Below are positions 1,796 to 64,000 of a DNA stretch of 64,000 nucleotides, in pieces (position 1 is the stretch's first letter; every line of letters begins with the position of its first letter). A model generated the notes under the pieces. The model made no database searches, was not told where the DNA came from, and worked only from the letters and a program-made list of their open reading frames with translations. The position numbers and the translations under genes were made by a program. Location: contig OZ243961.1 of the NCBI GenBank assembly GCA_965214605.1, positions 1,103,008 to 1,167,007 of the forward strand, read 5' to 3'. The stretch comes from an uncultured Candidatus Binatia bacterium (GTDB taxonomy: Bacteria; Desulfobacterota; Binatia; Bin18).

Positions 1796-1857
1796 CGTCC
1801 TCCTCGCCCAGTGTTCATCTTGCACACAGACCGGGCGACCAGATAAAGGATTGTACC

Positions 1858-9345: not shown

Positions 9346-10499
9346 ATGGCGGATCAGCTACAACATGATTTGCTGCCACGGGCGAGCCACGATGAGCTCG
9401 CACGACAAAACTTTGTGCAAAGTCTGAAATTACACCTGGCAACAAAAATCGCCCCGGGCAATGAGCTTGTTTATGAAAAGCGGGCCAAACCCCGCTTTCA
9501 ACAACAGACAGGACGTCCGCCCAAAGACCGCCACGAAGTTCGCCGGAGCATGCGAGACGAGCCGTATTATCAGGCCTGGGGCTCACTGCAACGGACCAGT
9601 CAGGAGATGATGTGGGAGGCGGTCGACTCAAGCGTTGCGCGCCAGCTGCCTGAGCTTGTTGTGCGTGCCAGTCACAACGCCAAGCCCCTGGGCTCCTTAC
9701 GTCTCGATCCGGATCTTGCCATCCCAACCTATCACACGGCAGTCGATATTCACTGCCAACCCGGCGGCTATCATACTGAGTGCGGTCCGCAGGATGATGT
9801 GGCGGCTGGAGCGCTCTACGATCGCGCCGTCCATATCTACGCCATGAGCCGTCTGGGGACATTGAATGACGAGATGGGACAGTCGGTCGTGGTGTATTTG
9901 CAGCACCGCTATCCGGATTGCCGACCCACCCGAATCCTTGACATGGGCTGCACGGTTGGCCACAGCACGCTCCCCTATGTCGATGCCTATCCAGCGGCCC
10001 AGGTTTTTGCCATTGACGTGGGCGCGCCGGTGCTCCGCTACGCTCATGCCCGGGCTGAAGCGCTGGGCAAATGTGTTCATTTTTCGCAGCAAAACGCTGA
10101 ACGGACCACGTTTGCCGAAGCATCGTTTGACCTCATTGTGTCGCATATTTTGCTACACGAAACGTCGAGCAAGGCGCTCCGTAACATCGTTCGAGAAAGC
10201 TATAGGCTGCTCACTCCGGGCGGTCTGATGATCCACCAGGAGGTCTCCCAGTATCACGGCTTAGACCCCTACCAAGCCTTCATCCTTGATTGGGACACGT
10301 ACAACAATAACGACCGTTCTGGGGGACTCTGCGTGACACAGATCTGACCGCGATTGCTGTTGAAGCCGGCTTTGCCAAAGAGCAGGTCGTTGAGACGATG
10401 ATTCCGAGCGCCTTCCAGGTCAAAGGGCGCGCCCGACGTCTCCAGGCCGGCGACTTTGGCGGCAGCGGACAATGGTTCATCTTTGCTGCTACCAAATAG
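9346..10499 (+). pseudogene. class I SAM-dependent methyltransferase interrupted by a 1-nt frameshift near 10312
   Basis: ILDMGCTVGHS (motif I) and LLTPGGLMIHQE. The reading frame ends ...WDTYNNNDRSGGLCVTQI* at 10347. A shifted frame from 10314 reads PFWGTLRDTDLTAIAVEAGFAKEQVVETMIPSAF...FIFAATK* up to TAG 10497-10499. Confidence 0.7.
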
Positions 10500-10856: not shown

Positions 10857-11518
10857 GAGCCAAGAGCGCAGTTTTGGCCTTTAACTTTCAGGATTTTCCC
10901 AATGTCTTTGATTCTCGGTGTTGACCTTGTCGGCACGTCGGCACATACACAAAGGCCATTTTTCGGCATCTCGCCCATCCTGACAGAAGGATGTCATCGA
11001 CCGACATCAGCATCCAGAATCGAGGTAATGCGCTATTTTTCCTTGATTTTCGAATAGCGACGAGGCGTGCATTGTCGTCTCCGATGCGCTTCAACGCGCC
11101 TGAGTTTCAGTCCGGTCGCTTGCGGTATGCTACGGTTCCATCCCCACCTGAAACAGGAACATTTACAGTTGACCAGGCACGGCGTCAGGCGGCGCTCGCC
11201 ATCGCCCGCATCAAGTACGTCGCGGAGCACCTGCCCAACGTCGGGGTAACCTTCGACAAGTTTCCTGTCGTCGCCCACGCATCGGGGCGCTCGACAAAAC
11301 ACAGCGCATCGGGCAGCGCCTCAACCCGAACTCAAGGACATGCGGTGGACCCTGCTGGGGATCCCGGAAGCCTCGGTTCCGAACACAGTATTGCCTTCTG
11401 CAACCTTATCGACTATAGTAGCCGGCGACCCAGCGAACCTACGTTACCAACCCGCCATTCTTCGGGCAGCCAAGTTTCTGTGGCGGCAAGAATATCGTCG
11501 AGCGAGGGCGGCACACCC

Positions 11519-12067
11519 ATGCGAATACGCCACTACTCCATAACGAAACGCCTCGTCTTCGTTGGGCCGTTTCTGTATGTGCTCGTGCTGGCGACGGCAT
11601 CCCTCACGGGGCGGGGAGAAATCTACCCCTTCTTTGCCTGGGACTTGTTCGCGGGGGTGCCGGCGGGGTGGGTCATCCAGACGCCCGCCGTGGTGGCGCA
11701 TCCGATGGACGACTCCCGAAATTTAGGGGGGGGGGGGGGACGCTGGGTCATTCCGTCCCCCGACCCCCGGCATTTGAAGGTGCTGCGCGAGGTCCTGCAC
11801 GCGTGTGAGCGCCGCGCGGCCCCCGCGTGCCGGTCCGCCGTGGCCCGCCTGCTGCTCCCCCTCGTCGTTGACGGCGTGGGGAGCGGCGCCGTGGAGTTCA
11901 GTCTCGTCTGGGCGGCCGTCGATCTGCGCGCCCTCCGGGAGGACATCTGGGCGCTCGCCGCCGGCCGCACGCAGCGCATGGACTATGCCCGGGTCGCTAC
12001 GGTGCTCTCGCGGTGGCGCGCGGCCGCGGCCGGCGGCCTGCACCGGGTTGATGGGGGCACCCCGTGA
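11519..12067 (+). CDS. hypothetical membrane-anchored protein containing a G14-encoded Gly run
   Basis: ATG 11519. MRIRHYSITKRLVFVGPFLYVLVLATASL is a TM anchor, followed by EIYPFFAWDLF. The stop overlaps the next start as GTGA. The tracked 358-aa ORF (10991..) probably over-extends upstream. Confidence 0.5.
   Translation: MRIRHYSITKRLVFVGPFLYVLVLATASLTGRGEIYPFFAWDLFAGVPAGWVIQTPAVVAHPMDDSRNLGGGGGRWVIPSPDPRHLKVLREVLHACERRAAPACRSAVARLLLPLVVDGVGSGAVEFSLVWAAVDLRALREDIWALAAGRTQRMDYARVATVLSRWRAAAAGGLHRVDGGTP
11726..11739. repeat. homopolymeric G14 tract inside a coding sequence
   Basis: Counted directly: ...aatttag then 14 G then acgctgg. It encodes GGGGG in the current frame. Confidence 0.95.
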
Positions 12068-13416
12068 ACGCTGCGCGGCTGCAGGGCCGGCTCCGCAAGA
12101 CCCTCCTCCACGTGGAGACGGGGGAGCGGCGGCGCGCGGCCGACTTCTCGCGGGCCGCGCGCCACATCGCCGTGCTGGTCCGGTTCTATTACATCTTCGT
12201 CGCGTACCTCCTCTTCGGCCGGTTCAAGGTTGCGAATTTGCTCCACGGCATTCCCCCGCCCGCGCCGTTGTGGCCCCTGGACCTGATGGCGACAGTCGCG
12301 GGCTCCGCGTGGCTCGCGTGGGGCGAGCTCCTCACGGCGGCGGGCGTGGGGGTGGCGCTGCTGGCGGCGCTGTGTCCGGGCGTGCTGCTCTTCCGGCTTG
12401 GGGTCTTCGTCTATCTCTTCATCGGCATCGCGCTGGCCAACTCCTATGGCGCCATCAGCCATGGGCGCCATCTCTTCCTCTATGTCTCCTTCGGGTTGTT
12501 GTGGCTGCCGGCGGCCATCGGCCGCCCGGAGCGCATGGCGCGCCGGGAGGCGATGGCGTGCAACGCGGCCTTCTGGCTGACACAGGCACTGCTGCTGCTG
12601 CCCTACAGCCTCAGCGGCTTCTGGACACTCTGGCGCAGCAACCTCCAGTTGGTGTCCCTCGACTCCTTCGTCCGGCTGGTCCTCGCCGGCCTGCTCGAAC
12701 AGGCCGGCGGGCCCCTCCCGCCGCTGGTCCCGTGGCTCGCCCAGTACCCCTCGGTCGGCCAGGGCTTGTATCTGGCGTTTTGCTATGTGGAAGGGCTGCT
12801 GCTCGTCAGTCTGTTCCGCCCCCACTTGCAGCGAGGGTTCGGCCTGGTCGTCATCGGGTTCCATCTCGGGACGCGGTGGCTGCTCGGCTTTGCCGCCGCT
12901 CCCTACCTCGTGCTCTGGTTCCTCTTCCTGGTGGCTTCGCCGTTCGCCGCGGCCCGGTTCTCCCCGGTCGCCACGGCGCGCTCGCTGCCGCTCCTCGGCC
13001 TCCCCTTCCGCGCGTGGGCGCGCTGGAGGCGCCCGGAGAAAGGGGCGGAGAAGGCGTGGCTGGTGTATGATGGCGAGTGCCCGTTCTGTTCGCGTTACTC
13101 ACGCATGGTCGATGTGAGAGATGCCATCGGCGAACTCATACTCGTGAACGCCCGCGATGGGGGGCCGATCGTGGACGAGATCAAGGCCCTGCCTTGGGAT
13201 CTCAACAGGGGCATGGTACTGAAACTGAACGGACGATACCGGTTTGGCGACGAGGCCCTGCACACCTTGGCGCTCCTGTCGCGGAAGAATGGCGCATTCG
13301 GCATCCTGAACCGTCTCGTGCTCGGTTCGCGCGCGGTCGCATGGTTCGCATACCCGCTGTTGAAGCTCTGCAGGAGGCTGGCGCTGATGGCGAAAAGGGT
13401 TCCGGTCCTGAAGTAG
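12064..13416 (+). CDS. fusion protein: polytopic membrane domain (possibly HTTM-like, unverified) + C-terminal DCC1-like thiol-disulfide oxidoreductase (DUF393)
   Basis: About 330 aa with multiple hydrophobic spans. Then WLVYDGECPFCSRYSRMVD carries the DxxCxxC motif that defines the DCC family, and the rest of the C-terminal domain is DCC-like. Confidence 0.75.
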   Translation: MNAARLQGRLRKTLLHVETGERRRAADFSRAARHIAVLVRFYYIFVAYLLFGRFKVANLLHGIPPPAPLWPLDLMATVAGSAWLAWGELLTAAGVGVALLAALCPGVLLFRLGVFVYLFIGIALANSYGAISHGRHLFLYVSFGLLWLPAAIGRPERMARREAMACNAAFWLTQALLLLPYSLSGFWTLWRSNLQLVSLDSFVRLVLAGLLEQAGGPLPPLVPWLAQYPSVGQGLYLAFCYVEGLLLVSLFRPHLQRGFGLVVIGFHLGTRWLLGFAAAPYLVLWFLFLVASPFAAARFSPVATARSLPLLGLPFRAWARWRRPEKGAEKAWLVYDGECPFCSRYSRMVDVRDAIGELILVNARDGGPIVDEIKALPWDLNRGMVLKLNGRYRFGDEALHTLALLSRKNGAFGILNRLVLGSRAVAWFAYPLLKLCRRLALMAKRVPVLK

Positions 13417-14110
13417 GAAACTCTTCGTAACGTTCACCTTCGCGACGGGGATCACCGACGCTACTGCTTGATGACGAAACCTTCATCAAGCGGGGAGATG
13501 CAGCGAATGCTGGCGGAGGGCATTGCGTCCGAGGACCGGCGGATTGTCGATCTGACGGTGCTGGATCTAAACGTTCAGTCGCCGCAGCACGGTCCCGACC
13601 TTCGGTGGGTGCAGGCTCACCCGTGGAGCTCAACCCGCCCCATCGCCGAGGTCCGTGCCCTACAGCGAGTATTGATTTCATGTCACGCCCAGGTCCGATT
13701 TCGCCCGGAGGACGTTTGGGAATAACCTCGGGGCGGAATGAATGGTTGGTGAAAGCCATGGAGAATTATATTGAGATTGCGCCTTAGGTTCACGGTCGGT
13801 CCCCGTTGATGGCCGTGGGCCGTCACAAGCGGGAAGAGGCGCAGGAATGGTTGGCGGCGTGTTTCCGGTGTCCGGCGTATTCGCTAGGCTGGCGTCGGTC
13901 GGGGCGGGTCTGCAACCGTTCCGGATGATCGATGGGAGGGGGCAAAAGGACCTGACGCCGCCCTCAACCGGCGTCAAGCCGGTGAAAGAATCGTCATCGA
14001 GAACCGCCGTGCGCTCGACGACAACGCATGGCGGCGAGCGTTACCAGCCTCTTGCGGGACCTCAATTCGATTGTGTATGATGACACCGACACGGTCACCC
14101 GTACGGCCCG

Positions 14111-14143
14111 ACCGAACAGTCACCAGAATCGTAACTGTTCGGT
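14111..14143. promoter_or_regulatory. perfect 10-bp inverted repeat ACCGAACAGT-N13-ACTGTTCGGT about 140 nt upstream of the hydantoinase A gene
   Basis: Read directly from the sequence. It lies in the AT-richer non-coding DNA preceding ATG 14281. Operator-like symmetry; the binding factor is unknown. Confidence 0.3.
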
Positions 14144-14280
14144 GACCTGTATGTGGAGAACGCAGACATGCACAGTTACGATGTTGATCGAATCCGCTTG
14201 CGGAATGCTTACGCTAACGGAAGTTTGCAAATGTTACTAGAATTTTTGTTCTTTTAAAAGAATAATGAAAACAATCTGTT

Positions 14281-16341
14281 ATGAGCTTCACAGGATCCGA
14301 TTACCGCATCGGAGTTGACGTAGGCGGCACCTTTACAGACCTGCTACTTTTTGACCAACAAACCGGCCACCAGGTCAGGGCCAAGACCCCCTCGACTCCA
14401 GACGATCCGTCGGTCGGCGTGCTGGCAGGGATTGATAAGATCTGTCGGGCGGCCCAGATCCCTGCGGCCCAGATCACCCACATTATGCATGGCACGACCG
14501 TAGCAACCAACGCAGTCCTGGAAGGCAAGGGTGCCCGGGTCGGCCTGATTACAACCGAGGGGTTCAAGCAGATCCTGCACCTGGCCCGCTCGTGGACGCC
14601 GGGTCCGCTGGCAGGCTGGATTACTATGGAGAAGCCCGATCCGCCTGCCGCAATTGAGTACACCCGAGAGGCTAAGGAGCGGATCGACACCCACGGCAAT
14701 ATTGTCACCCCGCTCGACGAGGATGCGCTGCGAGACGCGCTAGACGACTTGGTCGGTCAAGCTATTGAAGCCCTCACCATCTCCCTGATTAACTCGTATA
14801 CCAATCAGATTCACGAAAAGCGGATTAAAGCCATTGCCCAGGAACTCTATCCCGATCTGCCGGTCACTGCTTCCTCTGAGGTTCTACCCGAGTTCCGTGA
14901 GTATGAGCGCACCCTGACCGCGGTGATGAACTCCTATGTCCGCCCTACCGTTTCGGTCTATTTACGGAATTTCGCCGATCAGTTGATTGATCACGGGCTA
15001 CGCGCAGAGGTGAATATCCTGCGCTCCGACGCGGGTCTGATGACCTTACGCATGGCCCAAGAACGGCCGGTGTACGCCGTCATGTCGGGTCCGGCCGGTG
15101 GGGTTGCAGGAGCGCTGTTTACCGCCACCACAGCCGGCTTTGGTAATATTCTCACCCTGGATATGGGCGGGACCTCAACCGACGTCGCGCTGTGTCAGAA
15201 CGGCACGCAGACTATCGCCCGCGAGACAACACTGGGCTATTTTCCAATCAAAGTTCCCTCGGTTGATGTACGCAGCATTGGGGCTGGGGGTGGCTCGATT
15301 GCCCATGTGCCGGAGATTACGAATGCTCTGCGGGTTGGTCCGCAGAGCGCAGGGGCAGAGCCGGGGCCGGCGTGTTACGGTCGGGGCGGAACCCAACCAA
15401 CGGTGACAGACGCTAATCTTGTGCTCGGCCATCTGCCCCCTCGACTGCTAGGCGGTGAGATGCGTCTGGACGAAGAGGCCGCGCACGCTGCGGTTGAGAG
15501 CGTAGGCCGCAAACTTGGTTTAGACGTCTATCGGGCCGCGCAGGGCATTGTGGATATTGTCAATGAGAACATACATGGCGCGTTACGCCTGGTCTCAGTG
15601 CAACGCGGCTATGACCCGCGCAATTTTGCACTCGTGGCTTTTGGTGGTGCAGGTCCCCTCCACGCCAACGCGGTGGCCAGCCTAATTGGCTCATTCCCTC
15701 TCATCATCCCCCCCGCACCCGGGATACTATGTGCCACCGGCGATGTGTGTTCCGACTACCGTGAAGAGTTCGCTCGGACCGTACTGCGGACCCTGGACCA
15801 GCTGCCGGCGGCTGAGGTTAAACAGTTGCTCCAGGAACTCGGCAGCGAGGCCGCCGGCTGGCTTGAGCGCGAGGGCATTCCCCGCTCCCAGCAGGACATA
15901 TTCTATAACGCCGACATGCGCTATTTCCGCCAAGGCTACGAGCTGCCGATCGTCATTACGCTCGAAGACTTACAGGCACAGGGGATCGGCATCCTAGCCG
16001 ACCGCTTCCACGCTTTGCACGAACAGTTGTACCGCTTTCGGCTCGACGCGGAGTGCGAAATCGTCAACCTGCGGGCCGTGGCTCTGGGTAAAGGGGCGCG
16101 CTTCAGCCTGAACGCAGCGGACCTCGACGGCCCGGACGCGGCCCATGCCCAAACCGACGAGCACCGGACTTATTTTGACGGCAATTTTCTGCCCACACCA
16201 ATCTATGATCGGTTCAAGCTCAGACCCGGTAACCGGCTCACCGGCCCAGCCATCGTTACTGAAATGGACTCGACCACCGTCGTCCTGCCGCACTGTACGG
16301 CTGAGGTCGATCGCTACGCCAATATTTTGGTTCGACCGTAG
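14281..16341 (+). CDS. hydantoinase A / oxoprolinase family protein (HyuA-like)
   Basis: YRIGVDVGGTFTDLLL N-terminus, LDMGGTSTDV, FGGAGPLHA. 686 aa. Confidence 0.9.
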   Translation: MSFTGSDYRIGVDVGGTFTDLLLFDQQTGHQVRAKTPSTPDDPSVGVLAGIDKICRAAQIPAAQITHIMHGTTVATNAVLEGKGARVGLITTEGFKQILHLARSWTPGPLAGWITMEKPDPPAAIEYTREAKERIDTHGNIVTPLDEDALRDALDDLVGQAIEALTISLINSYTNQIHEKRIKAIAQELYPDLPVTASSEVLPEFREYERTLTAVMNSYVRPTVSVYLRNFADQLIDHGLRAEVNILRSDAGLMTLRMAQERPVYAVMSGPAGGVAGALFTATTAGFGNILTLDMGGTSTDVALCQNGTQTIARETTLGYFPIKVPSVDVRSIGAGGGSIAHVPEITNALRVGPQSAGAEPGPACYGRGGTQPTVTDANLVLGHLPPRLLGGEMRLDEEAAHAAVESVGRKLGLDVYRAAQGIVDIVNENIHGALRLVSVQRGYDPRNFALVAFGGAGPLHANAVASLIGSFPLIIPPAPGILCATGDVCSDYREEFARTVLRTLDQLPAAEVKQLLQELGSEAAGWLEREGIPRSQQDIFYNADMRYFRQGYELPIVITLEDLQAQGIGILADRFHALHEQLYRFRLDAECEIVNLRAVALGKGARFSLNAADLDGPDAAHAQTDEHRTYFDGNFLPTPIYDRFKLRPGNRLTGPAIVTEMDSTTVVLPHCTAEVDRYANILVRP

Positions 16342-51912: not shown

Positions 51913-53199
51913 GTGGCAACCGACGGTCTTGCGAGTATTCTTGAACATATCGATCCTCAGGTCAGCACGATTCTGCACCGGGCCTTGGAGGGACAAGAAG
52001 TGTCCTGGCAGGAGGCACTGCTTTTGTGCGAGACAAATGGGCTCGATCTCCAGGCCGTGTGTCTAGTCGCGGATGAGATGCGCCGGCGTCAAGTCGGCGA
52101 GGTGGTGACGTATGTGATCAACCGGAATATTAACTTCACCAACGTCTGCATTAAACACTGCACCTTCTGCGCTTTTAGCCGTGAATATCGTGAAGAACAA
52201 GGCTATTTTCTCCCCGAAGAGGAAATTATCCGGCGGGCTCAACAAGCTGTTGATATGGGTGCCACCGAGGTGTGTATGCAGGCCGGCCTGCCGCCCAAGA
52301 TGAAGGGCGAGCTGTATATCGATCTGACCCGAGCAGTGAAAAAGGCCCTCCCGGACCTGCATATTCATGCCTTCTCCCCTGAAGAGGTCTTGTACGGCGC
52401 AACGCGGGCGGCGGTCTCGATTCCCAACTATCTAGCCGCCCTCAAGGACGCGGGCTTGGATACCCTGCCCGGCACGTCGGCCGAAATTCTTGACCAGGAC
52501 ATTCGTGATCGTATTGCCCCGGGGCGCATCACCACAAAACAGTGGATTGAGGTCATCACGTCCGCCCATGGCCTCGGCATTCCAACGACCTCAACGATCA
52601 TGTACGGCCACATCGAGACCCCGATACATTGGGTCAAGCATATGAATCTGCTACGTGATATCCAGAAGGAAACCGGAGGCTTTACCGAGTTCGTTCCCCT
52701 GTCCCTGATTCACCAAGAAGCACCCATGTACCAGCGCAAACTGATCAAAAACATGCGTCAAGGCGCAACTGGCACAGAAGTCATTAAAATGCACGCAGTC
52801 GCCCGCCTCATGCTCGGCCCGACGTTTCGGAATATCCAGTCATCGTGGGTCAAAGAGGGCCCAAAGCTGGCTCAGTATCTGCTGAATATAGGGGCCAACG
52901 ACCTGGGCGGGACCTTGATCAACGAGAGTATTTCCACCTCTGCAGGCGCCCAGTATGGGCAGCTCGTCCCGCCTAAAGAACTCCGTCGTCTGATCCGTGA
53001 TATTGGCCGGACTCCGGCTGAACGTGGCACTACATACACGCTCCGAACAATCTTCAACGGCCAGGACGAAGAGTTAAGCCCGCTCGACATGGTCGAAAAT
53101 CCGGACGAGCAGTTCGGTTCCTATCGGAAGCTGACCGCCTCGGATCAGTTCCGCTACGTACATCCCTTTGAACGCGAGAAGCAAGCGGCTTCTCACTAA
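51913..53199 (+). CDS. cofH: FO synthase subunit CofH
   Basis: Radical-SAM CIKHCTFC motif. AAGGAGA SD before GTG 51913. Confidence 0.9.
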   Translation: MATDGLASILEHIDPQVSTILHRALEGQEVSWQEALLLCETNGLDLQAVCLVADEMRRRQVGEVVTYVINRNINFTNVCIKHCTFCAFSREYREEQGYFLPEEEIIRRAQQAVDMGATEVCMQAGLPPKMKGELYIDLTRAVKKALPDLHIHAFSPEEVLYGATRAAVSIPNYLAALKDAGLDTLPGTSAEILDQDIRDRIAPGRITTKQWIEVITSAHGLGIPTTSTIMYGHIETPIHWVKHMNLLRDIQKETGGFTEFVPLSLIHQEAPMYQRKLIKNMRQGATGTEVIKMHAVARLMLGPTFRNIQSSWVKEGPKLAQYLLNIGANDLGGTLINESISTSAGAQYGQLVPPKELRRLIRDIGRTPAERGTTYTLRTIFNGQDEELSPLDMVENPDEQFGSYRKLTASDQFRYVHPFEREKQAASH

Positions 53200-53235
53200 C
53201 ATCACCGGGCGGCATGCCCTTTCCCCCAGATCAGC

Positions 53236-54189
53236 ATGCCACGCTGTGACGATCTCAGCATTACCGCTCTTGCTGGAGGGGTGGGTGCCGCCCGTTTCTT
53301 ACGTGGCCTAGTACGTGTCATCAATCCGGCCAATCTGAGTGTGGTGGTGAACACTGGCGATGATGACGAATTTTTTGGCCTATACGTGTCTCCAGACCTC
53401 GATACCATCACCTATACGCTCGCCGATGCTGTCGACCATGACAAAGGCTGGGGTCTGCCGGACGAGAGCTTCCACTGTCTTAGCGGGTTGAGACGCTATT
53501 ATCCCGAGACCTGGTTTAGTCTGGGTGACGCCGACCTAGCGACCCACCTGTTTCGGACTCAGCAGCTGAGACAAGGGCACACCCTGAGCCAAGTCACCGC
53601 CGCTATTGTCCAAGCCTGGGACGTGCGCGCCACGGTCTTACCGATGAGCAACGATCCGGTCCGGACGGTGGTCCACACCGAAGCGGGTGCTCTGCCGTTT
53701 CAGGAATATTTTGTCAAAGGTCGGGGTGAAGGTCGGGTCGAACGCATCGAGTTACGAGGGCTGCCGGACGCCCGCCCGGCGCCGGGCGTGTGTGAGGCGA
53801 TCCAGTCTGCACATTTGGTGATTCTCCCGCCCAGCAACCCGTTGGTGAGCATCGGGCCTATTCTCGGCCTACCTGGCGTCCGCGACGCCCTGCGCCAAAC
53901 CCCAGCGTTGGTTGTCGGCATCAGTCCATTGGTAGCCGGTAAGCCGATTAAAGGGCCGGCCGACCGTATGCTCAGTGGCCTCGGCATTGAAGCCTCGGCG
54001 ACTGGAGTGGCCGGCCTGTACGCCGACTTTCTGGACGCTTTCGTGATCGATACGCAAGATGCGGCTCAACGGGCCAGACTTGAAGCCCAGGGGCTGATGG
54101 TTCGGGTAACCGATACAATTATGAGTGATATGGAGAAATCAATTGCCCTGGCCCGGACGGCTGTTGAACATATGAAACGTGAAACATAG
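53236..54189 (+). CDS. cofD: 2-phospho-L-lactate transferase
   Basis: ITALAGGVGAARFLRGL N-terminus and NTGDD motif typical of CofD/FbiA. Confidence 0.9.
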   Translation: MPRCDDLSITALAGGVGAARFLRGLVRVINPANLSVVVNTGDDDEFFGLYVSPDLDTITYTLADAVDHDKGWGLPDESFHCLSGLRRYYPETWFSLGDADLATHLFRTQQLRQGHTLSQVTAAIVQAWDVRATVLPMSNDPVRTVVHTEAGALPFQEYFVKGRGEGRVERIELRGLPDARPAPGVCEAIQSAHLVILPPSNPLVSIGPILGLPGVRDALRQTPALVVGISPLVAGKPIKGPADRMLSGLGIEASATGVAGLYADFLDAFVIDTQDAAQRARLEAQGLMVRVTDTIMSDMEKSIALARTAVEHMKRET

Positions 54190-54232
54190 GAGGGATATCT
54201 CCTAGGCCGCTGTATCCCCGAAGGATTCTAAT

Positions 54233-54985
54233 ATGAGTACGATCGCACTCATCCCTATCCCCGATATTCCCCAAATTCAACCCGGTGACGATCTGGTCTC
54301 GCTCCTTCTCGACGCGATTGATCGGTCCAAGGTCGGCCTCAAAAACGGCGATATTCTGGTTATGTGCCAAAAAATCGTCTCCAAAGCCGAGGGTGCAGTG
54401 GTTGATTTGAAGACCGTCGAACCTTCGTCTTTTGCCCACCAGATTGCAGACCAGTGGGAAAAAGACCCCCGTATCGTCGAGGTTGTGCTACAGGAGAGCA
54501 AGCGGATCGTGATGATGAAAAATGGAGTAGTGATAACCGAAACAAAACAGGGCTGGGTGTGTGCTAACTCGGGAGTCGATGCGTCAAATACCCTAGCCGA
54601 CGATATCGTCATCGTCTTGCCTAAAGATCCTGACCGGTCGGCCAAAAGCATGCGGGTCGCTATTCAAGAACGCCGCAATATTTCGATCGGGATCGTTATC
54701 ACCGATACCTTTGGCCGTCCGTGGCGTGACGGTCTGGTCGAGTTTGCGCTGGGCGTCTCGGGATTTGAGGGCCTGCTTGACATGCGCGGCAGTGAAGACC
54801 TCCAGGGCCGAGAACTGCACCATACCATCGTCTCGGTTGCTGACGAACTCGCCTGCGCCGCCGGCCTGCTGATGGAAAAGAACGCGGCCGTACCGGCCGT
54901 GATTGTTCGTGGTTACAAGTACACTCCGGCCGAGGGCAGCGGACAGGTCTTGATCCGGCCGGCCGAGGCGGATTTGTTTCGCTAA
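54233..54985 (+). CDS. cofE: coenzyme F420-0:L-glutamate ligase
   Basis: PIPDIPQIQPGDDL..., GDILVMCQKIVSKAEG and ITDTFGRPWR motifs. 250 aa stand-alone (archaeal-type) form. Confidence 0.9.
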   Translation: MSTIALIPIPDIPQIQPGDDLVSLLLDAIDRSKVGLKNGDILVMCQKIVSKAEGAVVDLKTVEPSSFAHQIADQWEKDPRIVEVVLQESKRIVMMKNGVVITETKQGWVCANSGVDASNTLADDIVIVLPKDPDRSAKSMRVAIQERRNISIGIVITDTFGRPWRDGLVEFALGVSGFEGLLDMRGSEDLQGRELHHTIVSVADELACAAGLLMEKNAAVPAVIVRGYKYTPAEGSGQVLIRPAEADLFR

Positions 54986-55430: not shown

Positions 55431-56648
55431 ATGACGACGAGACAAGATAGAAGCTCTCTCACTCTCCAAAGCCTGTTGCTTGCCGTCTGCCTAGTCCTGT
55501 CGACCGTTCCGGGCTTCTCGTCTCCACCCCCCGGTGTCAGCCTCATCGAGGGCAGTCTGACCCCTTTTTTTCACAATCGGCCCCTTTCGGCCTTTCGGGT
55601 CTACGCATTCCACGGCCACACTCCGCACCCGATTCCGTTTCAGATCGACGAACGGGACCAACGAGAGCGCTGGATTGTGAGGCACGGTTCAAAAGCCAAG
55701 CAGGACAGCCCTGCCGCGGTGTTTGACGCCAACGACGCCATTGTGGTGATGAACCGCGACCTGGGGCAGCGTGGCGACCCGTCCGTTCTTCCGGACCAGG
55801 CCAAGCGCTGGGCCGAGATCCGGGTCGGAGAAGAGACGAACCGGCTGGGTTTTGTCTATGTCGGGGTCTTTCCCCCAACACACACCCCACCACGCATCAC
55901 CCAGCCTTACGCCCGCTACGACCCGGCCACCGACCGGATCTATGCCGAGCGCTACGCCCTGGCCTTTGACGCGCCACTGCCAACCCATTTTGCTCCGGTT
56001 GAGCGGCTCGGCCACTTTGGGACCAATACTATAACCGGAGTCAAAGCCGGCGCCGAGGTCCGCTTGCTAGGCGGTTTGCTACGCTTCCAGCGTACCGAGG
56101 TCGATCTACGCAGCAGCTTGCGTGGCTACCAGTCCGGCCCGGTTCGGGTAATCCGCCAGGCGCGCTACTGGGTGCCGCTGCCGTTTGGCCTGCGCACCTC
56201 GGGCAAGGTCAATCTCATTTTCTACCGGGACTTTGTTGAGGGCAGCGCACGGATCAAGCTGAAAATCCCGCCCCGCCTCGTGCTGGCGGAGGGCGAATTC
56301 ACGACCTATTTTGACTTTCTGGACCTGCGCGGGGCGCGTCCGCTGCTGAATGGCCGCCTGAGCCGCTGGGCGGCACTGTGCCTACCGAGCGGCCGGACAC
56401 TTGTTCTTATTCCCCGGCTTGAGGACGGCTTGAGCAGGCTTGAGCAGCGCGTCTATTACGGTGGCGCTCAGCCCCATTTCGGCTTTCAGTTTTCGGAAAT
56501 TGGTCGTCTGGAGAGCGGCTCGCATCGCCTATCGGTTTTCGGCCTGCTGCTCGACACGACCGCCCCGGACACGGTTCAGCGGGCCGCCGATATCTTTCTC
56601 TCCCCCCCCCAAGTGGCCGCGCAGCTACTCAATGCCCAGCTGGACTAG
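55431..56648 (+). CDS. hypothetical exported protein
   Basis: ATG 55431. The signal-like segment LLLAVCLVLSTVPGFSS and about 400 aa with no motif I recognise. A C9 run at 56602-56610 encodes SPPQ near the C-terminus. Confidence 0.6.
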   Translation: MTTRQDRSSLTLQSLLLAVCLVLSTVPGFSSPPPGVSLIEGSLTPFFHNRPLSAFRVYAFHGHTPHPIPFQIDERDQRERWIVRHGSKAKQDSPAAVFDANDAIVVMNRDLGQRGDPSVLPDQAKRWAEIRVGEETNRLGFVYVGVFPPTHTPPRITQPYARYDPATDRIYAERYALAFDAPLPTHFAPVERLGHFGTNTITGVKAGAEVRLLGGLLRFQRTEVDLRSSLRGYQSGPVRVIRQARYWVPLPFGLRTSGKVNLIFYRDFVEGSARIKLKIPPRLVLAEGEFTTYFDFLDLRGARPLLNGRLSRWAALCLPSGRTLVLIPRLEDGLSRLEQRVYYGGAQPHFGFQFSEIGRLESGSHRLSVFGLLLDTTAPDTVQRAADIFLSPPQVAAQLLNAQLD

Positions 56649-57716
56649 AGACCAGGCGGCAACCGCCATCTGACGACACTGTTCCCTATAGCCCAACGCC
56701 TGAGGCGAGCTGGCGTTGCCGTCAAGTCCGCGCTTGTACACCCCCTGGATAATGGCGCCAATACGGAACAGGGCAAATACAATGTAGAAGGTCCAGTTCG
56801 GAATCTGCTTTCGTCCGGTCAGCTGGCAGTAGCGCGCCACATAGTCGTGCTCAGACGGAATCCCATAGCTGGCGTAATTAAGCCCAGTGATATCGCCCCG
56901 AATATCATCCGGCACATGGTAGGGGAGACAGTTGTGGGCCAAGTCGGCAAATGGAGCACCGAGCGTACTCAACTCCCAATCGACGACCGCCAACACACGC
57001 GGTTCGGTCGGATGAAAGATTATATTCTCTAAACGAAAGTCACCGTGGGAGATTGTGGTTTCGTCATCGACTGGCAGATGCTCGGGCAGCCACGCTATGA
57101 GCCGTTCCATCTCTGGAATATCTTCGGTTCTGCTGGCCGCATACTGTTTTGTCCAACGGTCAACCTGACGCGCCATATAGCCGCCAATCCGTCCATAGCC
57201 CTCTAGGCCAACCGCCCGAAAATCAACCTGGTGCAGGGCGGCGATCGCCTCGACCATTGCCGCATACACCCGTCCCCGCTCGTTCGGCGTCATATCACGC
57301 AGCTCATAGCCGCGTAACACCCGTCCATCAATAAAATCCATCAGATAGAAATCTGTGCCGATCACAGACGGGTCTTGACACAGCACGTAGGGCTTGGCGA
57401 CCGGCACGTCGGTGTTGCACAGCGCTGAAATGATCCGAAACTCCCGGTCAACCGCATGGGCCGAGGGCAGCAGCTTGCCAGGCGGCTTTTTACGCAGCAC
57501 GTAGCGCCGGCCGGCCGTATCCGTCAACACAAAGGTCGGGTTCGACATACCGCCCCGAATCTGTCCAACATGCATGGGTGGGGTGAAGTCGGCTAGGTGT
57601 CGGCACATATAACGCTCAAGGTGAGCCTGGTCGAAGTGGTGTTGCTCAAGCACCGGGGCGGTATCGGTGGTCAGCGAAACCAGCGGTAATGCCTCGGCCT
57701 GAGCGTTGGTCGCCAT
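56625..57716 (-). CDS. phosphotransferase (APH/ChoK-like kinase, ACAD10/11 N-terminal-type) family protein, paralog 1
   Basis: AAGGAGAG SD 6 nt before ATG 57716. Motifs GGMSNPTF, HGDFRLENIIF and VVDWELS (Brenner/APH catalytic loop). Confidence 0.85.
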   Translation of the reverse strand: MATNAQAEALPLVSLTTDTAPVLEQHHFDQAHLERYMCRHLADFTPPMHVGQIRGGMSNPTFVLTDTAGRRYVLRKKPPGKLLPSAHAVDREFRIISALCNTDVPVAKPYVLCQDPSVIGTDFYLMDFIDGRVLRGYELRDMTPNERGRVYAAMVEAIAALHQVDFRAVGLEGYGRIGGYMARQVDRWTKQYAASRTEDIPEMERLIAWLPEHLPVDDETTISHGDFRLENIIFHPTEPRVLAVVDWELSTLGAPFADLAHNCLPYHVPDDIRGDITGLNYASYGIPSEHDYVARYCQLTGRKQIPNWTFYIVFALFRIGAIIQGVYKRGLDGNASSPQALGYREQCRQMAVAAWSLVQLGIE

Positions 57717-57739
57717 CGGTATCTCTCCTTGTCCGTCGC

Positions 57740-58828
57740 TCATACGCCCCGCTCAACCAAGTCCCAGGCGGCGGTCGCCAACTGCTTGCACTTTTCACCA
57801 CGGGTGATGGCTTCGGGCGAGCTGGCATTGCCATCAAGCGCCCGTTTGTACACCCCCTGGACAATTGCCGCCAGTCGGAAGAGCGAAAACACCACGTAGA
57901 AGTTCCAGTTTTCAATAGCCGAGCGGTCCATCTGTTGGCAGTAGCGAGCCACGCACTCCTGCTCAGATGGAATGCCGTAGGTGGTAACATTGAGGTGGGT
58001 GATGTCCCCCCGGATATCGTCCGGCACCTGATAGGGTAGACAGTTATAGGCCAAATCGGACAGGGGCGCACCGAGCGTACTCAGCTCCCAGTCAACAACG
58101 GCTAACACCTGGGGCTGGGTGGGATGAAACAGCAGGTTCTCTAAGCGAAAATCGCCATGCACAATCGTGGTCTCATCGTCATCCGGCAGATGCTCGGGCA
58201 GCCAGGCTATGAGCCGTTCCATGGCCGGCAGCTCATCCGTTTTGCTCGCCTCGTACTGCTTGGACCAGCGCCTGACCTGGCGGCCCATATAGCCGCCGAT
58301 CCGACCGTAGTCCTCAAGCCCAACCGCCCGGAAATCAACCTGATGGATCTTGGCCATAGTATCAATCATGGTTTCATACACCGCCCGCCGCTCGCTCGGA
58401 GCGAGGTCGGGCAGCTCATACCCACGAAACACGCGACCCTCAACAAAATCCATAATATAAAAATCCACACCCAGCACTAACGGGTCCTGACACAGGACAT
58501 GCGGTTTGGCGACCGGCACATCAGTATCCCACAGAGCCGAGATGATTCGAAATTCTCGGTCAACCGCGTGGGCCGAGGGCAGTAGCTTGCCAGGCGGTTT
58601 TTTGCGCAGCACGTAACGCCGTCCAGCCCCATCCGTCAAGATGAAGGTCGGGTTCGACATCCCGCCCCGCACCTGTCCAACCGATAGCGGCGGACTGAAG
58701 GCCTCGATATGTTCGGCCATGTAGCGCGCCAGCGCGGCCTCATCAAAACGATGCTGGTCAAGCACTGGAGCAGTCTCAGCCGTGAGCGAAGTGAGCGGGC
58801 TGGTCTCTACTGCCTGGATTGTCGCCAT
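57740..58828 (-). CDS. phosphotransferase (APH-like kinase) family protein, paralog 2
   Basis: AAGGAGAG SD before ATG 58828. Roughly three quarters of residues are identical to paralog 1 by eye, including the block RRYVLRKKPPGKLLPSAHAVDREFRIISAL. Confidence 0.85.
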   Translation of the reverse strand: MATIQAVETSPLTSLTAETAPVLDQHRFDEAALARYMAEHIEAFSPPLSVGQVRGGMSNPTFILTDGAGRRYVLRKKPPGKLLPSAHAVDREFRIISALWDTDVPVAKPHVLCQDPLVLGVDFYIMDFVEGRVFRGYELPDLAPSERRAVYETMIDTMAKIHQVDFRAVGLEDYGRIGGYMGRQVRRWSKQYEASKTDELPAMERLIAWLPEHLPDDDETTIVHGDFRLENLLFHPTQPQVLAVVDWELSTLGAPLSDLAYNCLPYQVPDDIRGDITHLNVTTYGIPSEQECVARYCQQMDRSAIENWNFYVVFSLFRLAAIVQGVYKRALDGNASSPEAITRGEKCKQLATAAWDLVERGV

Positions 58829-58933: not shown

Positions 58934-59491
58934 TCAGCCAACGCGAGTTTGTCGCTCACGACCAAGGGTCACGATCCGCAACGTCCCGTCAACCTGTTCG
59001 AGCACCGTACAGGAGCAGTGATCCGGTTCAAAACACACCATCCGCTCATCTTTCCTCGCCACCCCCACCGCAGCATTGATGGCCACAAAATGGGTCGTGA
59101 TCAAGCTCGACGTTTGTAGGCTGCACAGAAAAGCGACCAGGTGCTCCTTCCAGTCCTGATAGAACTGCGGCAGGTCACTCCAGCGGCCGCGCAAGGCGCG
59201 GCGAATCCAGGCCGCGCGTTCGGCAAGATCTTGGCCAGGCGAAGGAATTTCGGCCACCACAGGCTCAATCCGCGCCTCACACTTCCACCTCCTCTCAAAC
59301 GGAACGGCGGTATCGCGGGCGCGCTGCAGCGGACTGCTAATCAGAGACAGGCGGCCGAGCGGTTCGAGCCGTTTTGCCAGGGCTGCTGCCTGGCGGTGTC
59401 CAAGCTCATTGAGTCCAGGGTCTGGATCTTCCCCAAATCCGGCTTGAGGCTGGCCGTGGCGGACGAGGTAGAGTTTGGGAGAAGACGGCAT
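58934..59491 (-). CDS. histidine phosphatase family protein
   Basis: LYLVRHGQP (RHG catalytic motif). GAAAGGAA SD before ATG 59491. Confidence 0.85.
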   Translation of the reverse strand: MPSSPKLYLVRHGQPQAGFGEDPDPGLNELGHRQAAALAKRLEPLGRLSLISSPLQRARDTAVPFERRWKCEARIEPVVAEIPSPGQDLAERAAWIRRALRGRWSDLPQFYQDWKEHLVAFLCSLQTSSLITTHFVAINAAVGVARKDERMVCFEPDHCSCTVLEQVDGTLRIVTLGRERQTRVG

Positions 59492-59735
59492 CGTGTATTC
59501 CTTTCGTGCCAAAAAATGGGCAGCCATGTTGCTTTTCGGGGGAGGGTGAGAACCTCTTGTTCGGCCTTAGAGTTATCCACTAGGTGGCTCAGCAAGGATA
59601 CTTTTGCCTAAAAAATCAGGGCCAGATGGCCGCTTCAGGGCCCTCCCCAGTGCAGGTACTCCAGTGTGGCACGATACATGCCTTTTCTCTACTGTACGAT
59701 GCCTCCACACTCACCCGGCAGGACAGGGAGAGACC

Positions 59736-60810
59736 ATGTATGACGCATGGGAGGGCTGGCTATGCCCGGGGGGTGACGCAATGTTCCCTCCTGAGGGGAC
59801 ACCGCGGCCAGCTGCAGAATTACTGCCGGAAAAGATTCAAGGTCTGCCCGATGGAGAAATTCTCCGTCTGCAGGAAGCGGCCGAAGGCACTCTGCTGAAT
59901 ATGGGATTCACCTCATAGCAGCTATAGCGACGGGACTGGGATGGAAAAAATCGGGCCGTTTGATCCACTGCCACGGATCATTGACGCACCGGAGCGGGCG
60001 GACATGGGTTGAGCGTGGCCTCAAGCAGCGCCGACAGACCCTAAAACTTTTCATCGACGCTATTTACCACGACTCAAAAATCTTCAAGGACAGCGTTATC
60101 CTCGAAGAGACTGTTCGGCCACCAGGGTTCGCCCCTCGTGTGTCAGCCTTGATCCCTCGTGAGACCTGGGGTGCCATATTACTGTCACCGAATCCGAGAC
60201 CGCGACAGCCAAATCTCCATCTTGGAAGATAACCTTCGCTGCCCATCCGAGGCCTCCTAGGGACTTCACTGACAGCCCATGAAGCGGACCTTCCCTTGGT
60301 CTTTGAAGCCTCTCAGAGCCGCCCGGTTGGGACTTACCCGGACCGCCCCGCTGTCCTTAGCCCCAGGCTCGCCTGAACACGCAAACGGTCGCAGCGGTGC
60401 TCCAACTCAGCCTCTTTTGAGTCTTCGTTTCCAGCTTAGCAAACGGGTGTTGAGTCGGGCGAGAGGGGGGGGGGGACAGCCAACGGATTTGTCCAAACGC
60501 GAACGCCCCTAGGGAGCGAGCGTGTTGTCTTGCCGGATTGATGATGATTTTCTTGATCCAAAGGGCGGGGCTGACTCAATGTCCGGCATCCTGGGCATCA
60601 TGGATGTCTACAAAGCTGGCCCCATCGGTCGACGCCTCCGGCACGGACATTACCGACGAGAAGGTCATCTGCGGCTATGTACAATCTGTCTGTGTCGGGA
60701 AGCCTCTAAATCGCCACTGCGCCTTGGAGCATTTTGAGCAGGATCGAAGAGGGCATAGTTTGCTGTCTAGGCCAATTGGCGGATCTATCCCAGCAGCCGG
60801 GGGATTGGCC
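59736..60810 (+). pseudogene. decayed circularly permuted type-2 ATP-grasp gene (multiple frameshifts/stops, 3' truncated)
   Basis: Fragments in three frames are collinear with the intact paralog at 61694-64000:
- GEILRLQEAAEGTLLNMGFTS*
- GPFDPLPRIIDAPE
- WVERGLKQRRQTLKLFIDAIYHDSKIFKDSVILEE
- L..NPSLPIRG...LPLVFEASQSRPVGTYP
- CRIDDDFLDPKGGADSMSGILGIMDVYKAG
- LAPSVDASGTDITDEKVICGYVQSV. Confidence 0.75.
60465..60475. repeat. homopolymeric G11 tract inside the ATP-grasp pseudogene
   Basis: Counted directly (gagag, then 11 G, then acagc). Confidence 0.95.
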
Positions 60811-60812
60811 GA

Positions 60813-61697
60813 TTAGGCCCGTTTTGCCTCGACCGCCACCTCCAGACTATGCGTCCCACCACCGAAGGCCACCCCTTTTAAGGGCGTCACATCGCTGTAA
60901 TCTCGACCCCAGGCCAGGACGACATGTTGGTCGGTTGGAATCAGGTTATTGGTCGGATCAAAATCCACCCAGCCCTGACCAGGGCTGTAGACCGACACCC
61001 AGGCGTGGGAAGCCGCGGCTCCAATCAAGGACGCCGAGTTAGCCTGGCCAGACGCTGGCACGGTTTCGAGATAGCCGCTGACATAGCGGGCGGCCAGGCC
61101 TAAGGATCGAAGACACGCAATAGCCAGCTGAGCATAATCCTGACACACCCCCCGGCGATGGGACAAGACCTCGTAGACCGAAGTCGCCGCGTTGGTGAAG
61201 TCAGGGTCATAGGTCAGGTCGTGATATATGCGCTCCATCAGCTCGCGGACCGCTTTGAGCAGGCAGCGTCCAGACGAGAACGACGGGGCGGCATATTCGG
61301 CAAAAGCCGAGGCGGCAGCGATCATTGGAGAGTCCAAAACAAATTGACGGGCGGTCAGCTGCTCCGGGGCGAGATTGTGGAGCAGATCCCGGCCGACTTC
61401 CTCCCAGGCCAGCGAAGCCTCCAACGGGGGAGACGCAACAGGACTGAGCAGCACCGTGCTCGACGCGCTTACCTCAAGCACGGTATGAGATTCCTGGATC
61501 GCAAAGTAGACCACCCGGTTGCCAAAAAAATCCTCACGTTCCTGATACACCGTCGGGACCGGATTGATCCGGAGTTGGCTGGTCTGACACTGTTGGCGCT
61601 CAAAAGAGCGCGGCAACAGATAGGCTTCATTCTGACAGTGCGAGACCGGCAGACTATAGCGATAGCGGGTCGTATGGAGGACGGTGTAGGGAATCAT
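60813..61697 (-). CDS. transglutaminase-like cysteine protease/ligase (Bact_transglu_N + transglutaminase core)
   Basis: Conserved N-terminal domain (MIPYTVLHTTRYRYS...) and a Cys-His-Asp core (RRGVCQDYA, ASHAWVSVY, DFDPTNN). The start overlaps the upstream gene stop by 4 nt. Confidence 0.9.
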   Translation of the reverse strand: MIPYTVLHTTRYRYSLPVSHCQNEAYLLPRSFERQQCQTSQLRINPVPTVYQEREDFFGNRVVYFAIQESHTVLEVSASSTVLLSPVASPPLEASLAWEEVGRDLLHNLAPEQLTARQFVLDSPMIAAASAFAEYAAPSFSSGRCLLKAVRELMERIYHDLTYDPDFTNAATSVYEVLSHRRGVCQDYAQLAIACLRSLGLAARYVSGYLETVPASGQANSASLIGAAASHAWVSVYSPGQGWVDFDPTNNLIPTDQHVVLAWGRDYSDVTPLKGVAFGGGTHSLEVAVEAKRA

Positions 61698-64000
61698 ATC
61701 CGATGTCCCATCAATTGTTGTTGGGCTTCGATATGGCTGAAGTAGGTCTGACTCAGGGCGTCGGAAAGGGCTAGCAGAAAGGCTCCGAGCTGGGCAAACA
61801 GTTCGTCTAGCTTTTCATACACCGGCTCTTCCCACACCGTCTGCGACAGCCCCTCAATATCCGTTGTGCGCAGCTTGGTCAGGGCTTGCAGCGCGAGGCG
61901 CTGGACCGGGCTGCGGTGCGGCAAGCTGGCCTTGCGAGGCAAGCGCTCGGCATGCTCCTGGAGGCGGACGAGCTGATAGCCGAGCGAGCGGGGGTTGCTC
62001 TCATCGTGCAATAACAGGTCGAGCACAGCCTGGGCGTCTATCTGGCTGTAATAGCGCCGCCGATAGGTCCGTCGGCTGTCGGTCATGGTCAGCACCACCT
62101 CCCACAGGCCACTCTGACCGCCAGTTGTCATCTCGCAGGCGATATGCAGCAGACTGATGGAGTGCAGGGCACGTTCCAGCCGCCGGCCCATCTCCAGAAA
62201 TCGAAAACCTTGGCCCCGGATCATGTTTTCAGCCATCAGCCCGGTAAAGGCGGCCAGCCCGGCGATCACCCGAGACAGGCTTTGCAAGGTCTGCTCCAGG
62301 CTCAGCCCCGAGGAGAGATCCCGGTCAAGCGTGTGCAGCATCCGGACCGTATCGTCGGATAGACGATCACGGACTGTCCGCTCGGCCTGCAACAGGGCGT
62401 CAAGCGTAAAACGCAAACTGCCCGGGCGCGTCGGCTCAAGGATGACCGCCAGCAGCTCGGGCTCGTCAGCCACCAACCGCCGGTTGACGCCATGGCTCAC
62501 CAGGTGCAGATAAGTCACTGCTTGATGGGTCACCGCGGACAACAATCCCGGCAAATAGGTATCATGATGGACGACCTCGGTGTCCAGCAGACGCGACAAC
62601 ATCTCCCGATACACTCGGGCGCTGCTCTCCATGCGCTCGGTATAGCGTCCGAGCCAAAACAGATTATCGGCCACTCGGCTCGGAATCTCTCCGCCACTCC
62701 GTGTCAGGGCAACCGGCCGCTCGGTCGAGGGCAACAGACTCACTGTCTGTTCGGGCTCTGAGGCCAAGACCCAGATATCCTTACTCACCCCGCTATCGTG
62801 ACTCGACACCTGCCAGACATCCGGGTCGGGCGCCACCCGCGCCAGCCCACCTGGCATCACCACATAACCATCGTTCCGCGCCACCAAAAAACTGCGCAAC
62901 ATCAGGGGACGCGGTGCCAGTCTCCCATCCACAAAAGTCGGGGCGGTGGACACCGTAATCGGCTCTTGAGCAACGTAACGGTGCGGCTGAGCTTTGATGC
63001 GGGCCATGAGGGCTTCTCGCTCGGCCGCGGACAGCTGAGCACCAAAGACAGCTTCAGAGCCGGCATGCGGAACGGTCGGTTTAATCACCAGACGCTCCAG
63101 ATGGGCTAGCACATAGCGCCGCTCCTCCTCCCCACCACACCACCAAGTGGCAACAGACGGCAGGTGCAAATCCTGTCCCAGGAGTTCTCTGCAGAGGACC
63201 GGCAAAAAGGCCAGCAGACCAGGATTTTCGAGGATGCCGACGCCCAGCGGATTGGCAACTACGGTCTGATGCGTGCGCGTCACTTGGACCAGCCCAGGGA
63301 TGCCCAGCAGCGAGTCTTTGCACAGCTCCAGCGGATCACAAAACGTATCGTCAACCCGCCGCAATACGGCGTCAACCCGCTGGAGGCCGTCCAGGGTTTT
63401 GAGCCACAGACACCCGTCTCGGACGGTCAAATCGCTCCCCTGGGCCAAGGTGTAGTCGAGGTATTGGGCGACATAAGCGTGTTCAAAATAGGCCGCGTTC
63501 CCCGGCCCCGGCGTCAACAACACAGTCCGGCCCGGCTCCTCTCGGTGGGGGACTAGGGTGGCCAGGGAGCTGCGCAAGGCCCGAAAATACAGGGCCAAGC
63601 GATGGACATGGGCATCACGGTACAAACTCGGAAAGACCCGCGATAGGGTCAGTCGGTTCTCCAGGGCATAGCCGGCACCTGAGGGCGCTTGGGTCCGGTC
63701 GTCAATGATCCGTATACTGCCGTCACGGGAGCGGACAAAATCAGCCGCATAGGAAAACAGAAAACGCCCGGACGGCGGACTGATAGTGACACAGGCGCGT
63801 AAAAATCCGGGATGGCTATAGATCAAATCAAGCGGCAAGAAGCCCTGTCTGACAAGTTTCTGTGGGCCATACAGGTCGGCCAGAATAAGATTATACAGCT
63901 CAGCGCGCTGAATCAGACCGCGTTCAATACCGCTCCACTCCTGGCTAGTCAGCAGGACCGGGATCAGATCAAGCGCCCACGGCCGCTCCCCGCCTCGAGT
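61694..64000 (-). CDS. circularly permuted type-2 ATP-grasp domain fused to alpha-E domain; 5' end lies beyond the window
   Basis: The reading frame stays open from 63838 to the window edge (TRGGERPWALDLIPVLLTSQEWSGIERGL...). ATP-grasp region: APSGAGYALENR, RRVDDTFCDPLEL. Alpha-E region: ADNLFWLGRYTERMESSARV. Confidence 0.85.
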   Translation of the reverse strand, partial: TRGGERPWALDLIPVLLTSQEWSGIERGLIQRAELYNLILADLYGPQKLVRQGFLPLDLIYSHPGFLRACVTISPPSGRFLFSYAADFVRSRDGSIRIIDDRTQAPSGAGYALENRLTLSRVFPSLYRDAHVHRLALYFRALRSSLATLVPHREEPGRTVLLTPGPGNAAYFEHAYVAQYLDYTLAQGSDLTVRDGCLWLKTLDGLQRVDAVLRRVDDTFCDPLELCKDSLLGIPGLVQVTRTHQTVVANPLGVGILENPGLLAFLPVLCRELLGQDLHLPSVATWWCGGEEERRYVLAHLERLVIKPTVPHAGSEAVFGAQLSAAEREALMARIKAQPHRYVAQEPITVSTAPTFVDGRLAPRPLMLRSFLVARNDGYVVMPGGLARVAPDPDVWQVSSHDSGVSKDIWVLASEPEQTVSLLPSTERPVALTRSGGEIPSRVADNLFWLGRYTERMESSARVYREMLSRLLDTEVVHHDTYLPGLLSAVTHQAVTYLHLVSHGVNRRLVADEPELLAVILEPTRPGSLRFTLDALLQAERTVRDRLSDDTVRMLHTLDRDLSSGLSLEQTLQSLSRVIAGLAAFTGLMAENMIRGQGFRFLEMGRRLERALHSISLLHIACEMTTGGQSGLWEVVLTMTDSRRTYRRRYYSQIDAQAVLDLLLHDESNPRSLGYQLVRLQEHAERLPRKASLPHRSPVQRLALQALTKLRTTDIEGLSQTVWEEPVYEKLDELFAQLGAFLLALSDALSQTYFSHIEAQQQLMGHRI

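Follow-up and report, generated by a model that had tools for sequence, protein, structure and literature searches.

Organization of the locus

The analyzed window, a 64-kb stretch of DNA, contains a 1285-bp region without a long open reading frame (ORF) at 59528-60812, located between genes for a His_Phos_1 protein and a transglutaminase-like protein. The longest + strand ORFs in this region reach at most 104 aa, leaving no uninterrupted frame for a whole CP_ATPgrasp domain. The region and its flanks are organized as follows:

58934-59527, - strand: intact His_Phos_1 (histidine phosphatase family) gene, assigned by Pfam; left-hand synteny anchor
59569-59735, + strand: conserved non-coding stretch ahead of the former ATP-grasp gene, divergent intergenic with His_Phos_1; ~75-80% identity to positions 9835-10000 of the related locus L001
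59736 to ~60741, + strand: pseudogene of a stand-alone circularly permuted (CP) type-2 ATP-grasp, equivalent to ortholog codons 1 to ~368 of 472
60465-60475, + strand: G11 homopolymer inside the pseudogene, at an indel site where the ortholog reads GAGGGGCGGGATTTAGTGGTG
60742-60771, + strand: junction of a ~1.38-kb internal deletion; ATP-grasp homology ends at 60741 and the probable alpha-E homology starts at 60772
60772-60816 (match 60772-60798), + strand: probable alpha-E relic, last ~10 codons and stop, overlapping the convergent transglutaminase stop codon
60813-61697, - strand: intact transglutaminase-like gene, 294 aa (Pfam Bact_transglu_N and Transglut_core)
61694-64000, - strand: intact fused circularly permuted ATP-grasp and alpha-E gene, with its 5' end beyond the window edge

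The flanking genes are intact and closely resemble those of two loci, L001 and L002, to whose contigs, both from one long-read metagenome, the closest stand-alone ATP-grasp proteins were traced. The His_Phos_1 protein shares 85% aa identity with its L001 and L002 counterparts, and the transglutaminase, read in a single frame, shares 85% with that of L001. The fused gene, matching CP_ATPgrasp_2 (E 9e-150) and Alpha-E (E 4e-71) in Pfam, overlaps the transglutaminase gene by 4 nt and encodes a protein 88% identical to the L001 protein over 766 aa in a single frame, with a full length of ~847 aa in relatives. At the nucleotide level, the three genes are 87-88% identical to L001 with zero indels. 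Across the whole 64-kb window, no other copy of a stand-alone ATP-grasp or alpha-E gene was found.

Two further stretches upstream, 51913-54985 and 56625-58828, are collinear with L001 and encode a CofH-like radical SAM protein, CofD, an F420 ligase, and two APH-family kinases. L001 and L002 have a GST gene between a 440-aa ORF and the kinases; judged only from ORF sizes, the window seemingly lacks it. Ahead of the former ATP-grasp gene, the predicted start codon (ATG at 59736) and ribosome-binding-like GGGAGAG motif (59725-59731) are both present. A ~28-nt block at 59668-59695 (CACGATACATGCCTTTTCTCTACTGTAC) is near-identical to L001 despite the dead downstream gene and may be a promoter or operator element of the His_Phos_1 gene.

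Homology of the dead gene

Fragments on the + strand match the Pfam CP_ATPgrasp_1/2 profiles collinearly (profile positions 12-48, E 1.7e-6; 198-233, E 4.6e-4). Six-frame translation recovers the fragments on which the original prediction was built, along with others it had not quoted, such as YYCHRIRDRDSQISILEDNLRCPSEAS and CSNSASFESSFPA*QTGVESGERGG. A 352-aa translation, stitched across frames picked by eye, has intact 472-aa proteins as its best match (E 8.7e-71, 50% identity, 89% of the query) and matches more than 2000 family proteins, the top ones all being stand-alone and ~470-500 aa long. As an unbiased control for the by-eye frames, tblastn against the window with the best intact match (P0001) as query yielded collinear HSPs in all three + frames between 59775 and 60629, with E values down to 2.8e-40. 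Together with the lesions described below, the Pfam matches and translated searches bear out the original prediction of a circularly permuted ATP-grasp pseudogene, collinear across all three + frames and convergent with the intact - strand transglutaminase and fused genes.

The dead gene thus shares its domain family (PF14403/PF04174), collinear profile, and 50% identity with the stand-alone CP type-2 ATP-grasp proteins. By profile similarity and orthologous position, it belongs to CP_ATPgrasp_2/CP_ATPgrasp_1 by descent. It fails as a functional member of the family, with frameshifts, stops, and deletion of the codons from ~369 onward.

Lesions and internal deletion

Convincing DNA alignment to L001 extends from window position 59569, in the upstream region, to 60741, at ATP-grasp codon ~368, with 80% nucleotide identity over the former coding part. 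Lesions were counted by MAFFT alignment with three intact orthologs and, in a second count, by pairwise alignment to L001. The MAFFT alignment contains 18 window-specific indels (13 deletions and 5 insertions), 14 of them frameshifting; the pairwise alignment gives 16 frameshifting indels, the exact number depending on the alignment. In the MAFFT alignment, the frameshifting indels measure 1, 4, 4, 4, 4, 1, 11, 1, 11, 8, 5, and 52 bp, with others inside this 1-52 bp range. Four in-frame stops are present in the ortholog frame, at 60160, 60258, 60270, and 60437. The estimate of at least five frame changes or stops in the original prediction was a large undercount, and its G11 run is located at 60465-60475. 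It had proposed the adjacent intact gene as the template for counting; that alignment was dropped in favor of the true orthologs, since the neighbor gives only weak matches of 25-31% identity.

The distance between the His_Phos_1 and transglutaminase genes is 1285 bp in the window versus 2768 bp in L001, a difference accounted for by the ~1.38-kb internal deletion. The deleted segment, equivalent to ~11105-12485 of L001, encompasses the end of the ATP-grasp gene (codons ~369-472), the intergenic spacer, and the alpha-E gene up to codon ~313. Beyond the junction, 27 nt match L001 12486-12512 with a local score of 32, exceeding the shuffle maximum of 28 (n=200) by a modest margin; the best matches in L004 (score 21) and L005 (score 19) also fall at the homologous position, with both scores within the shuffle range. 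The relic translates as RPIGGSIP, compared with RPIGGTIPEP at the alpha-E C terminus, and agrees in position and frame. The original prediction had described a 3' truncation against the transglutaminase gene end: the 3' part is indeed missing, and the lesion is an internal deletion that probably leaves the alpha-E tail behind. The C-terminal stretch it had read as ATP-grasp ('...RPIGGSIPAAGGLA') is probably the alpha-E tail at 60772-60798.

Neutral substitution and independent assembly

Substitutions in the window and L001 were assigned to branches with L004 as outgroup. The window branch carries 146 substitutions, distributed as 46, 53, and 47 over codon positions 1, 2, and 3, and the L001 branch carries 23, distributed as 7, 1, and 15. 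Differences between intact orthologs fall at codon positions 1, 2, and 3 as 21, 13, and 83 (L004 versus L001) and as 30, 20, and 126 (L005 versus L001). Some third-position sites are lost to differences between L001 and L004; with a correction for this loss, rates on the window branch are near-flat at ~0.15, 0.17, and 0.19 per site. This flat pattern indicates that the copy has been free of coding constraint for virtually all of the time since it diverged from the L001 lineage.

An exact-protein look-up of the window transglutaminase retrieved a second, independent assembly of the 3' part: L017, a SPAdes short-read contig from ENA assembly ERZ21849000. This contig is identical to the window over ~350 bp (~60480-60830), a stretch that takes in five of the indel sites together with the deletion junction and the probable alpha-E tail, and it breaks off at the G-run in a homopolymer artefact. 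For the 5' two-thirds (59736-60480), an exact 28-mer across a 5' lesion had no match in JGI metagenome contigs, and the exact window His_Phos_1 protein had no record in the assembly collection. The lesions are real: sequencing error is excluded directly in the 3' third by the identical contig, and over the whole region by the flat substitution pattern and the missing 1.4 kb. The neutral pattern of substitution and the loss of 1.4 kb also led us to reject programmed frameshifting and a split gene.

Synteny and repeated loss in relatives

L001 and L002 share one gene order: His_Phos_1 (-), ATP-grasp of 472 aa (+), alpha-E of ~323 aa (+), transglutaminase of 294 aa (-), and fused protein of 847 aa (-), preceded by the same APH-family kinase and F420-biosynthesis genes that the window carries. 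Scanning one genome for each species with the window transglutaminase revealed five more syntenic loci from the Candidatus Binatia lineage (L004-L008). L004 and L005 encode a full-length stand-alone ATP-grasp and alpha-E, each in a single frame, at the same site. The flanks, His_Phos_1 on one side and the transglutaminase and fused genes on the other, are the same in L001, L002, L004, and L005. In L003 and L009, the ATP-grasp/alpha-E pair is present as far as the contigs extend. The original prediction had proposed looking in relatives for an intact ATP-grasp/alpha-E/transglutaminase set at this site; the ATP-grasp and alpha-E genes are indeed intact there, and no second transglutaminase was found at the site in any relative examined. 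The fused gene and its transglutaminase gene are intact at every locus examined.

A distance tree built from three flanking proteins places L005, with the pair present, as the outgroup. L007 and L008 form one clade, and neither carries the pair: only 58 bp separate the transglutaminase and His_Phos_1 genes in L008, and the site in L007 is occupied by a 1181-aa ORF (11090-14635, - strand) with N-terminal leucine-rich repeats (LRR_8, E 2.5e-24). L004 carries the pair, in contrast to its close relative L006 (5% protein divergence), which has two 316-aa ORFs in its place (10975-12885) between the transglutaminase and His_Phos_1 genes. The first of these ORFs matches Pfam REase-ARP (E 4.8e-22) and PDDEXK_13, of the PD-(D/E)XK type; the second has no Pfam match, and a PADLOC scan of both replacement ORFs returned no matches. 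L001 and L002 carry the pair, and the window retains a decayed remnant. Mapped onto the tree, the decay in the window, the replacement in L006, and the absence in the L007/L008 clade imply at least three independent losses. The picture is also mixed at Binatia-like metagenome loci of greater distance: the convergent pair is present in L020, and L026 and L025 have none within 4-6 kb.

Small frameshifts also occur in the pair of the two closest loci, whose contigs are nearly identical; those in the L002 gene include +2 at 5884 and -1 at 6652. In L001, a frameshift at 11859 (a G4 versus G3 run) splits alpha-E into 117 and 209 aa, and in L002, frameshifts at 5884, 6563, and 6652 split ATP-grasp into 214 and 240 aa. 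These lie inside a ~4-kb divergent patch with 9-19 substitutions per kb, compared with 0-1 elsewhere, and may represent early decay, a recombination tract, or long-read or assembly error.

Origin of the remnant and alternative explanations

We interpret the region as a unitary pseudogene, the remnant of a two-gene unit of stand-alone CP type-2 ATP-grasp and alpha-E, with a probability of ~95%. The homology, synteny, lesions, and neutral substitution are shown, and an independent assembly confirms the 3' part. The ancestor would have carried the ATP-grasp/alpha-E unit between the His_Phos_1 and transglutaminase genes, convergent with the operon of the fused and transglutaminase genes. The unit would have lost its function after the split from the L001/L002 lineage and would then have accumulated neutral substitutions, many small indels, several stops, and one ~1.38-kb deletion that brought codon ~368 of ATP-grasp next to the final ~10 codons of alpha-E; we infer this order of events. 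Loss of one of two ATP-grasp sets, as originally predicted, is what the locus displays: the fused set is intact and the stand-alone set decayed. The loss was plausibly tolerated since the fused paralog and the transglutaminase remain.

The main alternatives concern where the dead gene came from and whether it is dead at all. The original prediction had called it a second copy of the intact neighboring gene, and a recent local duplication of the fused gene followed by decay would fit two sequences that both fall in Pfam CP_ATPgrasp_2 and lie 1-3 kb apart. Yet the pseudogene fragments share only 25-31% aa identity with the adjacent fused protein (tblastn E 5e-06), versus 50% aa and 80% nucleotide identity with the stand-alone orthologs, and the intact stand-alone and fused ATP-grasp domains are themselves ~35% identical in every relative genome examined. 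These values point to an ancient duplication, and Nitrospirales, Acidobacteriota, Sumerlaeota, and Chloroflexia already have the two sets as separate neighbors, making a recent duplicate extremely unlikely. On sequence comparison, the ortholog of the pseudogene is instead a distinct paralog of ancient divergence, still present at the same position in relatives. Fainter still is the likelihood of an intact gene in the organism, with frameshifts and stops introduced by errors of sequencing or assembly, for instance at long-read homopolymers. The G11 run would suit such errors, as would the one to three small, possibly erroneous frameshifts in the pair of the long-read contigs L001 and L002, one of them at the G4 versus G3 run. 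Against this, most indels measure 4-52 bp and lie outside homopolymers, ~1.4 kb is absent, and the neighboring genes have no indels at all. The window substitutions, flat over codon positions, are also ~6x those of the sister branch, and the short-read contig L017 reproduces ~350 bp of the lesioned 3' part exactly.

The remnant might instead have a function of its own, as a regulatory RNA, an N-terminal peptide (54 codons from the ATG at 59736), or a promoter or terminator for the flanking genes. Conservation with L001 and L004 is high in its upstream block (59569-59735), and 1.28 kb persists here versus 58 bp in L008. Both features speak for such a function, but an Rfam scan of 59300-61000 with E up to 1 gave two chance-level matches only, with no family better than E 0.5. 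Promoter and terminator scans of the region likewise found nothing above shuffle expectation: there was no sigma-70-like promoter, and the single terminator-like match was no better than shuffles. The former coding part substitutes neutrally, and the flanking genes of L008 manage without the whole block. We therefore consider a function of the remnant's own very unlikely, if somewhat less so than a recent duplication. As a unitary pseudogene, the remnant would make no ATP-grasp protein and has probably been kept only by chance, or for the promoter side of His_Phos_1 and the terminator side of the transglutaminase gene.

Relation to known systems

According to accounts of Iyer et al. 2009 in PMC5666114 and PMC6376114, the stand-alone CP ATP-grasp is the first gene of predicted operons encoding ATP-grasp, alpha-E, a transglutaminase-like protein, and often Anbu, for which a peptide-ligation or tagging role was predicted. 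The experiment reported is ATP hydrolysis by a Yersinia ATP-grasp protein only, and the hypotheses on the role of the operon are unconfirmed (PMC6376114). CP ATP-grasp/alpha-E/transglutaminase systems are widespread, and their substrate and physiological role are not established (PMC6376114, PMC5666114).

The unit kept by the relatives resembles the Anbu-type operons in having a stand-alone ATP-grasp gene followed by alpha-E (PF04168). It differs from them in that the pair has no same-strand transglutaminase or Anbu of its own in this lineage; no Anbu-like gene is present among the called genes of L001 and L002. In the window and all Binatia relatives, alpha-E is instead followed by a convergent transglutaminase gene whose translation is coupled to that of the fused paralog. 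Unlike the intact stand-alone family, the window gene is dead, with 14-16 frameshifts, four stops, and a deleted 3' end.

The neighboring fused protein combines the same two Pfam domains as the lost pair (CP_ATPgrasp_2 and Alpha-E), and the two presumably perform the same kind of chemistry. The stand-alone and fused sets are adjacent in several phyla, including representatives of Nitrospirales, Acidobacteriota, Sumerlaeota, and Chloroflexia. The fused neighbor differs from the pseudogene in being only ~25-35% identical, in holding both domains in one polypeptide, and in being intact and conserved at all loci examined.

The decay itself resembles that of ordinary unitary bacterial pseudogenes, with many frameshifts, an excess of deletions over insertions (13 versus 5), one larger deletion, and a neutral pattern; it is solidly an ordinary case of gene loss. 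In annotation, 59736-60812 should be marked as a pseudogene and not left blank. What goes beyond an ordinary unitary pseudogene is that the same gene pair was lost independently in sister lineages, and this recurrent loss or replacement of one pair at one site in related genomes is a mildly interesting extra. The kept, broken, and deleted states in close relatives show that genomes with the fused set can do without the stand-alone pair, and close genomes differing in state allow the redundancy of the two sets to be studied by comparison.

A more tentative suggestion, which we hold as possible and rather less than probable, is that the stand-alone pair serves the fused ATP-grasp/transglutaminase pair as a dispensable accessory partner and has been lost at least three times at one Binatia site. 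If so, these genomes would serve as natural knock-outs, helping to assign a role to a widespread uncharacterized ligase system, and the convergent gene junction would be a hotspot of gene turnover.

Several frame changes in both ATP-grasp sets were seen in two nanopore MAGs from other phyla (Acidobacteriota, Chloroflexia), at 1628-4058 of L012 and at 1414-3964 and 7417-10892 of L015. With nanopore reads as the source, long-read error is a likelier cause than decay, and such cases call for caution in pseudogene calling in assemblies of this kind. In L002, a TIR-domain gene and a fragment of an MmeI-type restriction-modification gene lie ~6 kb past the locus (14624-15974) and are absent from the otherwise collinear L001, suggesting variable, defence-like cargo near the L002 locus.
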